This document shows positions 42,601 through 46,532 of a DNA stretch of 47,006 nucleotides, piece after piece (position 1 is the first letter of the stretch; every line of letters begins with the position of its first letter). Both the position numbers and the translations under genes were made by a program. The stretch is taken from IMG/VR virus record IMGVR_UViG_2925903241_000004. One strand, written 5' to 3'. Source of the stretch: a virus. Lineage: Duplodnaviria > Heunggongvirae > Uroviricota > Caudoviricetes. The notes below the pieces were generated by a model, which ran no database searches, was not told the origin of the DNA, and saw nothing but the letters and a program-made list of their open reading frames with translations.

Positions 42601-42990
42601 ACATCAGAAAGCACAGGCAAAATGTTGTTCCTGAAAAACCACAGAAGCAGCGCTCAAGTGCTGTTAAATGGCGATGATGGAGCGGTTCAACTACTAAGTG
42701 GCACTGTTAACGGTGCTACAGCGCAGGCGCTAACCATCAACAAAGATGAGGTTAACTCAACTGCCGATTTAGTAATTAGAAAACAAACAGGGACTGGCAA
42801 TCGTTTTGCTTTACTTAATTCAGGTAATTCAGAACTACCAGTTAGTATCAGGGTGTGGGGTTCCAGTACTCGACAAAACGTTTTTGAGGTTGGAACGTCT
42901 GCTGCGTATCTGTTTTATGCGCAAAAAACAACAGACGGGCAAAACCTTACTGAACCGCCCCGGGTTTCCTGGAGAGTGTTTTATCTGTGA
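39667..42990 (+). pseudogene. stf: Side tail fiber protein, N-terminal portion, interrupted by an IS629-like insertion at 42950/42951
   Basis: N-terminus MAVKISGVLKDGTGKPVQNCTIQLKAKRNSTTVVVNT... matches lambda Stf; long Ala/Ser/Thr-rich low-complexity region; the frame runs 40 nt into the IS terminal repeat before a stop at 42988-42990. Confidence 0.85.
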
Positions 42991-42992
42991 AC

Positions 42993-43462
42993 TCAGGCTG
43001 CCAGATCATCGTTTCCGATGGAAGCATAATAAGCTTTTTCTGCTTCTGCCGGAGGAGTATGGCCCAGCCTTTCCAGCAATCGTCGATTGTTATACCAGTC
43101 CACCCACGTGAGTGTGGCCAGTTCCACTTCTGCACGGTTTTTCCAGCTCTTACGGTGTATTACCTCCGCTTTGTAAAGACCATTGATGCTCTCCGCCATC
43201 GCGTTGTCATACGAGTCGCCTGTACTTCCTGTTGATGCCAGTAATCCGGCTTCCTTAAGCCGCTGTGTGTAGGCCAGCGATACATACTGAGAACCTTTAT
43301 CACTGTGATGGACCGTGCCGGACGGTCGACGGGCCCATAACGCCTGCTCCAGTGCATCCAGCACGAATGTCGTTTCCATGGACGATGAGACCCGCCACCC
43401 CACGATGTATCCGGCAAACACATCAATGATGAACGCCACATAGACGAAGCCCCGCCATGTGC
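42993..43462 (-). pseudogene. IS3-family transposase OrfB, C-terminal exon (downstream of intron)
   Basis: Encodes ...[47 protein letters not shown]... (integrase-core C-terminal part); joins in frame to the upstream exon when the intron is removed. Confidence 0.8.
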
Positions 43463-45735
43463 TGAGTAGAGTAAGAGGCAGGGCGTAGTCGGACTATTTC
43501 CCTGCCTCTCCTCCCCGAACCGGACGTGCACCTTTCAGCGCATCCGGCTCTCCATTTAAATGCTGGCGAACGCCATTGCCACTTCTGTAAAGCGCGATGT
43601 ATACGTGTTTCTGGTCTCCGTCCTCAGATAGGGATTACCTTCGGGTAGCCGCCAGCGGAACAGCTTCTTGCCTTGCCCCACCAACCGGTACAGTATTTCG
43701 CCGCTGAGCTTGCCGTGATTGGTTTTACCAAATAAAACCCACGTTTTGCTCTGACCCGGTTTCGGTGATTTACACCACCACCTCATCAGGGAAGCGATAC
43801 CTGTACGGTATTTGCGGGCCAGCCAGTGAGCCAGCTTCCAGAACACGACACGGTCGATATAACTGAAGACTTTGGCCTTAAAATCAACGAACTGATAGAA
43901 CATGGCCCAGCCTTTCAGTTTTCGGTTGAGTTGTTCAGCCATATCGACTTTGCTTTCACTGTAGTTGCCTGATAACAGTGCTGTCAGCGATGCGGCGAAG
44001 TTTCTGGCTTTCTCCTGCGGGATCGTTGAGACCACTCGCATCTCGCCATAACGACTGCGTTTGCGAATGATCCTGTGCCCCAGAAAGATAAAGCCGTCAT
44101 TAACATGGGTGATTTTAGTCTTATCCATGTTCAGCCTGAGTTTCAGACTGCCTTCGAGCACACCCCGACACTCCTCCCTGATGGCTTCCGCCTGTGCTTT
44201 GGTGCCTTTGACGATGAGGACAAAATCATCGGCATAGCGGCAGTACGCCACCGCGGGTTTCCACTGCCAGTTTTCTCTGACCGCCGTACTTCGGCCCCGT
44301 TGGATACTGTTATTCCAGTACCACCGATCTTTTCTGGCTTTCCCGCTCAGGTAGCGCTCATGCAGGTATTGATCGAACTCATTCAGCATGATGTTCGATA
44401 ATAGCGGCGATATAACACCGCCCTGTGGCACACCTTCACTGGCCGCCCGAAAGAGACCGACATCGATATGTCCCGCCTTGATGGTTTTCCACAGCAGAGT
44501 CATGAAACGTGCGTCACTGATCCTGCGGCGTACAGCCTTCATCAGCAGTCGATGATGTACGGTGTCGAAGTAACTGGACAGGTCGCCTTCAATCACCCAG
44601 CGTCCCCGGGTTTCACCACAGTCTGTGAGCTGTAATTTCACCGTGCGGATCGCGTGGTGGACACTGCGCTCAGGCCGGAAGCCATATGAGAGCGTATGAA
44701 AATCACTCTCCCATATCGGCTCCATCGCCATCAGCATGGCCCGCTGAACAATACGATCCCGCAACGCGGGGATACCCAGTGGTCGCAGTTTGCCGTTGCT
44801 TTTAGGGATGTAAACCCGTCTGGCGGGCAAGGGCTGGTAGTGGCCTGAGAGTAATTCATCCCTGAGGATTTGCAGCTCAACAGCCAGTCTGGCCTGTAGC
44901 ATTGTTTTGTTCACGCCATCAACGCCGGGGGTATGGGCCCCCTTTGATGAAAGCGTGATCCGCGCCGCTTCAGCCAGCCATTCTGGTTGTGTTATCAGAC
45001 GCAGCAGCCGTTGAATCCGTAGGGACGGATCGGTGACTGCCCATGTGGCAAGCTTGCGTTGCATTTCGCTGATTATCAAAGGTCTTCACCTCGTTAGGTC
45101 AGTTAATTCACGTCGCAAACACATTCAAACTGCTTCCCTTCGCCATGTAATGGGCTTTCCCCATCGCGGACTACTACGGAAGCTCCGCCAGCCAGCGCGT
45201 CATCGGAGCCATGCCCCCTTAACATCCGTCGCTGACCTTCCCCGGTTTACCTGCCTGGACTCAGGCATACTGAGGAGGCTGCCCGTCGCACTCTTTATCC
45301 TTGCTTGCCGCAAGTTGGCAGAAGTCAGCAACGCAAGCGTGATAGACGCTGCTGCCCCGGTGTTTCGCATACATGTCAAAACACCTTCGACCGGCAGTGC
45401 TTACGTATCACTGCCAGTTCCTCCTGCACGGCCTGTCAGATCACGTAGGCCGTGGTGACGTTTTCAACCCACAGAGGCGGATTAACGGGTTCATGTTCTT
45501 CAGCCTTTCAGTACTTAACCTTGAGGATCATCTCGGCTTAGTGATCTCGCCTCAATCCCCGTTGTCAGCGGGTTACATCACCCTGCGGGCATGCCGCAGG
45601 TCACTGCCGCTCAGGTTCTCCACCGTCACACCCGGTGGGATTGTTGGGTTTCTCATCGTGAGTTACCGGCTCAATATTCCAGACAGACTCGCGGTTCATT
45701 TAAGCATCCATGCCCGCCCTGAACTCCGGGCACAC
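43463..45735 (-). mobile_element. Group II intron (bacterial, with intron-encoded reverse transcriptase) inserted in IS orfB
   Basis: On the minus strand the element starts GTGTG right after codon ...DFTY+G and ends ...CTAC; a domain V-like hairpin GAGCCGGATGCGCTGAAAGGTGCACGTCCGGTTC lies just 3' of the RT ORF; removal restores a continuous OrfB frame ([21 protein letters not shown]). Confidence 0.8.
43556..45079 (-). CDS. Group II intron-encoded protein (reverse transcriptase/maturase)
   Basis: 507-aa ORF with RT-like blocks (e.g. YADDFVL) and a C-terminal maturase-like region; probable TTG start at 45079 (GAGGTG 7 nt upstream) or ATG at 45064. Confidence 0.9.
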   Translation of the reverse strand: MIISEMQRKLATWAVTDPSLRIQRLLRLITQPEWLAEAARITLSSKGAHTPGVDGVNKTMLQARLAVELQILRDELLSGHYQPLPARRVYIPKSNGKLRPLGIPALRDRIVQRAMLMAMEPIWESDFHTLSYGFRPERSVHHAIRTVKLQLTDCGETRGRWVIEGDLSSYFDTVHHRLLMKAVRRRISDARFMTLLWKTIKAGHIDVGLFRAASEGVPQGGVISPLLSNIMLNEFDQYLHERYLSGKARKDRWYWNNSIQRGRSTAVRENWQWKPAVAYCRYADDFVLIVKGTKAQAEAIREECRGVLEGSLKLRLNMDKTKITHVNDGFIFLGHRIIRKRSRYGEMRVVSTIPQEKARNFAASLTALLSGNYSESKVDMAEQLNRKLKGWAMFYQFVDFKAKVFSYIDRVVFWKLAHWLARKYRTGIASLMRWWCKSPKPGQSKTWVLFGKTNHGKLSGEILYRLVGQGKKLFRWRLPEGNPYLRTETRNTYTSRFTEVAMAFASI

Positions 45736-46153
45736 CGTAAGTAAAATCAGCCACCCACAGCTGGTCAGGTCGTTCTGCCACGAACTGACGGTTTACGCGG
45801 TCGCCTGCGGCAACGGCTTTCCGGCTGATGGTCGTACGGACCTTTTTACCCCGGAGAACACCGGCAAGTCCCATAACCGCCATGAGACGTGCCACAGTGC
45901 ATCTGGCCACTCTGATACCTTCCCGTAACAACTGACGCCAGACTTTACGCACACCGTATACCTTGTGATTTTCATCGTATACGCGCTGTATCTCTTTCTT
46001 CAGCCAGTCATCGCGCTGCGCACGGGCACTGCGTTTATCCGGATGATGTCGCTGTTGCTGACAGTGGTAATACGTTGACGGGGCAATATGCAGTTCGCTG
46101 CATAGCGGTCCGACCCCGTACTGCTCACGCAGCTTATCCAGCAGTGGCATCAT
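45736..46153 (-). pseudogene. IS3-family transposase OrfB, N-terminal exon (upstream of intron)
   Basis: Encodes ...YGVRKVWRQLLREGIRVARCTVARLM...DQLWVADFTY then runs into intron sequence; overlaps the orfA 3' end as expected for an OrfAB frameshift arrangement. Confidence 0.8.
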
Positions 46154-46475
46154 TTTTTCCAGAGGCGGTCGAACTCCGCCTTCGCAAAATAAGCGGAAGC
46201 CTGGCGAAGGATATCGTTACTGCGGCGCAGTTCACGATTTTCACGTTCCAGCTCTTTCAGACGCTGACGTTCAGCGGTGGTGAGCCCTCCATCACCGCCC
46301 CCGGTATCCCGCTCATGCTGGCGAACCCAGACACGCAGAGTCTCCGGCGTACAGCCAATCTTTGGAGCAATGGAACAAATTGTCGCCCATTGTGAGTCAT
46401 ATTCGCTCTGACTTTCCAGAACCATACGGACTGCCCGTTGACGGACTTCGGGGAAAAACGAGTATTTTTAGTCAT
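46150..46475 (-). pseudogene. IS629-like OrfA, frameshifted near the N-terminus
   Basis: MTKNTRFSP (from ATG 46475) and the rest ([34 protein letters not shown]...) are in different frames; break maps to the G-run 46452-46455; recalled IS629 has one more C here (TTTTCCCCCGAAG). Confidence 0.75.
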
Positions 46476-46532
46476 CCTGTTTACCTCTTTCTCAGGAAGT
46501 TTAGTCTCCAGGATTCCCGGGGCGGTTCATAC

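Follow-up and report, generated by a model that had tools for sequence, protein, structure and literature searches.

The group II intron E.c.I4 of Escherichia coli, named as in the Zimmerly database and catalogued by Leclercq and Cordaux in 2012, homes into IS629, IS911 and related transposase genes, and a fragment of it is listed in K-12 (PMC3522654). Toro's group places both E.c.I4 and S.f.I1 in class A and describes them as lacking a D/En region (PMC3552965, PMC4244168). Another endonuclease-less intron, RmInt1, sits in the transposase gene of the insertion sequence (IS) ISRm2011-2 of Sinorhizobium meliloti; it splices at 0.07% in vivo and has been proposed to limit the spread of its host IS through inefficient splicing (PMC3035460, PMC4238363). 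Here we analyze a copy of E.c.I4 inside an IS629 element that itself interrupts the side-tail-fibre gene (stf) of a prophage, as recorded in the 47 006-nt IMG/VR record IMGVR_UViG_2925903241_000004 (the window, by which we mean this whole stretch; coordinates refer to it unless a genome or locus is named). The nested element is real, far beyond chance. IS629 very probably entered stf first, and E.c.I4 retrohomed into the resident copy later.

The composite occupies 3579 bp on the minus strand. An earlier note made from the letters alone had read it as an intron in an IS3-family element in stf, and this three-level nesting is borne out by Rfam and Pfam matches and by the identity of the IS parts, with the intron removed, to the annotated 1310-bp IS629 of the Shiga toxin (Stx) phage LC567824.1 (99.4% at the nucleotide level).

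42948-42950, no strand: left copy of the TAC target-site duplication (flank reading; empty-site alleles have a single TAC)
42951-46529, minus strand: IS629 (IS3 family) carrying the intron (identical composites in many genomes are annotated IS629 plus ltrA)
42951-42975, no strand: IS629 terminal inverted repeat, orfB-distal end (compared with the reverse complement of 46505-46529)
42993-43465, minus strand: 3' exon of IS629 orfB, C-terminal DDE integrase core and stop codon (Pfam rve, rve_3, rve_2)
45736-46153, minus strand: 5' exon of IS629 orfB, HTH_21 domain and beginning of the integrase core (Pfam HTH_21, 5.3e-19; list of open reading frames)
46079-46195, minus strand: ALIL pseudoknot at the orfA/orfB overlap (Rfam RF01497, 120.2 bits, gathering threshold 50, E = 7.5e-32)
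46150-46475, minus strand: IS629 orfA, frameshifted in the window (Pfam HTH_Tnp_1; one G/C lost from the run 46446-46449)
46505-46529, no strand: IS629 terminal inverted repeat, orfA-proximal end (inverted-repeat comparison)
46530-46532, no strand: right copy of the TAC target-site duplication (flank reading)

The IS629 ends (TGAACCGCCCCGGG) start with TG and form a terminal inverted repeat that is perfect over 14/14 nt and matches at 23/25 positions over the outer 25 nt. The first bases of the element in the window are TGAACCGCCCCGGGTTTCCTGGAGAG, and the last are the reverse complement of TGAACCGCCCCGGGAATCCTGGAGAC. IS3-family ends and flanking TAC repeats are thus both present where the earlier note had placed them. 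Uninterrupted alleles (HUM3355 and four others, 99.9% identity) align in one piece to a reconstruction with a single TAC, and because these empty-site genomes do so, the TAC is a true target-site duplication. All of the element's coding capacity lies on the minus strand and consists of an HTH_Tnp_1 open reading frame (ORF), an HTH_21 ORF, a 502-aa RVT_1/GIIM ORF and an rve/rve_3 ORF. The two overlapping ORFs orfA and orfB are present together with the ALIL pseudoknot, as in the −1 frameshift layout of the IS3 family, in which this pseudoknot stimulates the programmed −1 frameshift. Restoring one missing G returns a 108-aa OrfA, and with the intron also removed the element measures 1310 bp.

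That orfB is split by a group II intron encoding a reverse transcriptase of its own, likewise claimed from the letters, is supported by matches of the intron protein to RVT_1, GIIM and the NCBIfam equivalog model for group II reverse transcriptase/maturase proteins (TIGR04416, 341 bits, cut-off 300).

43466-45735, minus strand: group II intron E.c.I4, 2270 nt, in sense orientation within orfB (boundaries, excision match, near-identity to the catalogued copy)
43466-43552, minus strand: intron domains V and VI, catalytic hairpin and branch-site helix (Rfam RF00029 Intron_gpII, full-length, 64.9 bits, gathering threshold 40, E = 1.2e-11)
43556-45064, minus strand: intron-encoded reverse transcriptase/maturase ltrA, 502 aa, intact, with YADD motif (Pfam RVT_1 1.5e-34, GIIM 1.3e-10)
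45400-45405, minus strand: candidate exon-binding site 1 (EBS1), CGUAAG, intron nt 331-336 (in the loop of a 7-bp hairpin; 6/6 complementary to CUUACG)

The limits first proposed for the intron were right at 45735 and three bases off at the other end, where 43463 (2273 bp) gives way to 43466 (2270 nt). On the minus strand the intron begins with GUGUGC at 45735 and ends with ...CUCUAC at 43466, in agreement with the 5' GUGYG / 3' AY rule (GUGUG...CUAC) and backed by intron-less alleles. Three observations fix the 3' splice site: the Rfam match to domains V/VI stops at 43466; a construct lacking exactly 43466-45735, with 200 bp of tail-fibre flank per side, matches 29 complete genomes in one piece at 99.9%; and the IS629 of LC567824.1 is contiguous across the insertion point. 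Joining 43465 to 45736 restores orfB in frame (...ADFTY|VSTWRGF...). The homing site falls between ...TTTACTTACG and TCAGCAC of IS629 orfB, and the intron reads in the same direction as that gene.

For comparison with known E. coli group II introns we used E.c.I4-2b of strain E24377A (NC_009801, 4848623-4850893, coordinates from the supplement of PMC3522654), from which the window intron differs at 4/2270 nt. The E24377A copy has the same ltrA accession (WP_001189123.1) and sits at the homologous position in the transposase gene of a different IS3-family element, an IS911-type host. Across ltrA the window matches the strain 4/2-1 copy base for base; that copy is annotated WP_001189123.1, as are those of several further genomes examined. 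The ykfC fragment of K-12 covers 78% of the intron at 99.7% identity. A Pfam search found no HNH/En domain in the intron protein, which is consistent with the class A, En-minus assignment. Judged by its sequence, the intron is E.c.I4, a bacterial class A, endonuclease-less intron, and it looks functional. CGUAAG is a candidate for EBS1 and serves as a lead only; its complement, CUUACG, forms the last six bases of the 5' exon. A complementarity search for EBS2 gave only weak, ambiguous candidates. At window position 45409 (intron nt 327) the window has G vs A in the E24377A copy, a difference that removes the closing pair of the candidate EBS1 hairpin, and the exon context of the intron is CCTATA in E24377A vs CTTACG in the window.

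The population survey covered 5426 complete E. coli genomes, in which the stf site occurs in several states.

175 genomes: left stf::IS629 junction present
173 genomes: right stf::IS629 junction present
145 genomes: junction with the intron
29 genomes: junction with intron-free IS629
1 genome: junction with a 262-bp remnant keeping both ends
5 genomes: uninterrupted site at 99.9% identity
307 genomes: uninterrupted site at ≥80% coverage

The structure of the empty site was checked in HUM3355. In strain Y5 an intron-free, intact IS629 (WP_151327001.1) occupies stf in a context otherwise like that of the intron-bearing strain 4/2-1. Genomes with the junction stem from Sweden, Switzerland, China and Senegal, with humans, pets, birds, cattle and the environment as sources. 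Since 175/5426 genomes from several continents and hosts share the junction, the insertion marks a lineage rather than a recent event in one strain. The suggestion that it was probably recent therefore survives in part: the insertion shows no decay, yet it is at least as old as the lineage. The 262-bp remnant, in 11899A_LBHALD, is a mini-IS629 at the same TAC site (locus L004, 2101-2362) with both terminal repeats kept, resembling a miniature inverted-repeat transposable element; the part missing from its interior corresponds to window 43081-46398.

Beyond stf, E.c.I4 occurs in 2346/5426 genomes, mostly at ≥99% identity (≥80% coverage in 1873). The IS629::intron composite (at least 80% covered) is found in 1404 genomes at many different loci, for example beside hypT in 675SK2, and unoccupied IS629-type homing sites are found in 3093. 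Some E.c.I4 copies are interrupted by IS421, which adds one more level of nesting (NZ_CP142939.1, 296852-301781; NZ_CP028578.2, 1909219-1912838). Among deposited phage genomes none had the whole arrangement; the matches were to IS629, plus two records with IS629 and intron parts, and IS629 insertions in prophage genes are common among phage records. All parts of the arrangement are annotated automatically by PGAP. The arrangement is confirmed as one of an already known kind, E.c.I4 in a documented IS629 target within a prophage gene.

We propose a two-step origin. IS629, as a DDE transposon of the IS3 family, would have transposed into codon 1095 of stf and duplicated TAC, a mechanism taken from what is established for the family. 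An E.c.I4 ribonucleoprotein from another copy in the cell would then have retrohomed into the resident IS629 at the usual orfB site (...GAUUUUACUUACG^UCAGC...), in sense orientation and in the conserved stretch coding for DFTY. We infer the retrohoming step because the behaviour of E.c.I4 is known and an intron-free allele exists. The empty state, IS629 alone with intact transposase, and IS629 with intron are all found at one site in an otherwise identical context. Transposase OrfAB from the window copy would require the intron to splice out of the transcript, and if RmInt1 in ISRm2011-2 is a guide, the main effect of the intron is probably to hold its host IS back.

Close relatives differ in which IS629 copy holds the intron. 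A second, inverted IS629 lies in a tail-fibre-assembly remnant ~0.25 kb past the stf stop, beyond the window end at 47006, in 44 genomes (47252-48401 of locus L003 in 675SK2; 1-1806 of locus L008 in WCHEC005784). In 675SK2 the stf copy has the intron and the second IS629 is intron-free; in WCHEC005784 the second IS629 has the intron and the stf copy is intron-free; WCHEC005237, from the same hospital as WCHEC005784, carries the intron at stf and lacks the second IS629. A single inversion between the two inverted copies is ruled out for 675SK2 vs WCHEC005784, as the 3' segment of stf has the same orientation in both. Either repeated intron homing or sequence exchange between IS629 copies could underlie the pattern, and the shifts in position imply what appears to be recent mobility of this sequence type.

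Several observations weigh against IS629 arriving first and a functional E.c.I4 following. The 29 intron-free alleles could be derived, by precise intron loss or gene conversion, rather than ancestral, and a second inverted IS629, present in 24 of the 25 listed genomes whose stf copy lacks the intron (at least 24/29), offers a recombination partner and thus a possible conversion donor. Pairing of the candidate EBS1 with the IS911-type exon that flanks the E24377A copy would be poor. Rfam models of intron domains I-IV had no match at E ≤ 0.1 in 42500-47006, where the intron matches were to domains V/VI and two weak plastid D5 models only; the intactness of the ribozyme outside domains V/VI would follow from near-identity to other copies. 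The first of these points would fit an origin in which IS629 already carrying E.c.I4 transposed into stf as a 3.58-kb unit, with transposase supplied from a spliced transcript or in trans, and the intron-free alleles arose later by precise loss or gene conversion. The abundance of the composite at many loci (the 1404 genomes above) and the intron in 145/175 junction genomes are in keeping with it. However, Y5 has its intact, intron-free IS629 at stf and lacks a second copy in the vicinity, E.c.I4 is documented to retrohome into IS copies already in place (PMC3522654), the low splicing of the best-studied analogue would make the composite a poor transposon, and the unoccupied homing sites in 3093 genomes are as expected if IS629 spreads intron-free and is invaded afterwards. 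We consider this reversed order improbable.

The lack of domain I-IV matches would also suit an intron that is a dead passenger, unable to splice or move through a defect in ribozyme or protein, with this IS629 copy permanently inactivated. Enterobacteriales contain many inactivated intron copies, a sign of extinction dynamics (Leclercq and Cordaux, PMC3522654), and in the window this IS copy has a frameshifted orfA. Against this stand the full-length intron protein with its YADD motif, encoded by DNA identical to the WP_001189123.1 copy, the fit of domains V/VI to consensus, the mere 4 nt that separate the intron from another copy, and its variable position between close relatives, which together make such a passenger improbable. 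A chimeric join of repeated copies during assembly might be suspected, as IS629 and E.c.I4 are multi-copy repeats and two private homopolymer indels around the IS junction suggest an imperfect consensus; but the same structure and junctions recur in 145 independently assembled complete genomes, and continuous alignments span the left junction in 175 genomes and the right in 173, so that an artefact is effectively refuted. Transposition of IS629 followed by retrohoming of E.c.I4 is the account we retain.

The private indels concern the state of this copy. Over 44.4 kb the window differs from strain 4/2-1 by three substitutions and two indels, both single-G contractions of G runs, 235 bp apart. 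The first (46446-46449) frameshifts IS629 orfA and the second (46684-46686) the chaperone region of stf; neither was found in 173 other genomes with the junction. Both sit in sequence that recurs within a genome, IS629 in one case and the conserved S74 module in the other (median 2 places per genome). The contractions are likely unpolished homopolymer assembly errors, although they could be real private mutations. In 675SK2 another composite lacks the same G, and the ltrA at its stf locus is frameshifted.

The interrupted gene stands after J and lom in a lambdoid prophage located between potC and potB. The window opens where the prophage integrase gene ends, and its other end coincides exactly with the stf stop codon.

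39667-42950, plus strand: 5' part of stf, codons 1-1095 (Pfam phage_tail_N at residues 3-136, E = 1.5e-71)
46533-47006, plus strand: 3' part of stf, 14 fibre residues, then the Peptidase_S74 intramolecular chaperone domain, then a coiled-coil tail (Pfam Peptidase_S74 7.9e-14; PDB 6F45 chain A 1.9e-9)

Translation across the insertion point upholds the claim that the fibre frame is continuous once the IS is removed; in the window it is broken again ~50 codons on by the second contraction. Restored Stf has 1252 aa from the ATG at 39667, with phage_tail_N and Peptidase_S74 in one frame, and its intact homologues carry the annotation 'pyocin knob domain-containing S74 family peptidase'. The insertion was also said to separate both distal fibre and chaperone from the shaft, which is correct for the chaperone and not for the distal fibre: Peptidase_S74 begins 14 residues downstream of the interrupted codon 1095, the mature fibre of ~1095 aa including its distal part lies essentially all upstream of the IS, and the chaperone module alone is detached. 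The open frame of stf extends into the IS to 42990, so that the product would end after 1095 residues plus 12 encoded by the IS (EPPRVSWRVFYL), lose the S74 chaperone and leave the J-dependent tail tip untouched. Loss of an S74 chaperone should block trimer folding, and the side fibres of this prophage should accordingly be unable to fold; judging from lambda PaPa, the phage itself need not be inactivated by their loss. RefSeq lists the same 3324-nt ORF (39667-42990) as an ordinary protein (WP_223349244.1) in identical loci, despite which stf of this prophage is to be read as a pseudogene.

As a discovery the locus carries little weight: life inside IS elements is textbook material for bacterial group II introns, and the combination of E.c.I4 with IS629 is already catalogued. 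With its four distinguishable states the locus is convenient as a lineage marker, and it could serve to test whether an intron restrains its insertion sequence. A bolder proposal, that E.c.I4 is active now in a globally spread E. coli lineage, has invaded one and the same resident IS629 copy more than once and throttles IS629 by occupying it, as has been proposed for RmInt1, seems to us unlikely. If true, the series of empty site, IS629, IS629::intron and 262-bp mini-IS, with the second IS629 nearby, would be a natural experiment that could measure how far an intron suppresses its host transposon.

The prophage also carries iss, iraM, dicB and hokD. An unrelated insertion, an IS21-family element at 9801-12380 (about ±9 bp), lies in its early region; it is absent from the near-identical prophages of 675SK2 and 4/2-1, and the flanking alignments share nine bases. 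The RNA features below are Rfam matches at gathering level.

4505-4556, minus strand: DicF
9886-10635, minus strand: istB of the IS21-family element, 249 aa
10647-12188, minus strand: istA of the IS21-family element, 513 aa
13029-13204, plus strand: sok, next to hokD
16203-16275, plus strand: tRNA, annotated as tRNA-Ile in relatives
16629-16822 and 17098-17286, plus strand: two tandem copies of the small RNA STnc100

Compared with described systems, the intron is essentially identical to E.c.I4 / S.f.I1, with the same protein accession and the same type of target, an IS3-family transposase gene, and its place inside a prophage matches what is described for other copies in mobile elements (PMC3522654). 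Nothing of substance differs from E.c.I4: the window adds one more IS629 location, with the 5' exon CUUACG where E24377A has an IS911-type exon. The host element agrees with IS629 of Shigella sonnei, E. coli O157 and Stx phages in restored length, ends, 3-bp duplication and ORF layout, and departs from it in the intron within orfB and in an orfA one base short, which may be a sequencing error. RmInt1 is likewise an endonuclease-less intron at home in an IS transposase gene, and we use it as a working analogy rather than a membership; it is of class D, whereas the window intron is of class A, and it resides in another IS family and another host. The gene itself has the make-up of lambdoid Stf, in which the Stf N-terminal domain leads into a long shaft and Peptidase_S74 forms the C-terminal part. 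Laboratory lambda was reportedly recognized as naturally stf-defective by Hendrix and Duda in 1992. The stf lesion of lambda PaPa resembles the one seen here in that it removes the side fibres and need not abolish J-dependent infection, but it is a frameshift, whereas in the window an IS has inserted just upstream of the chaperone module.

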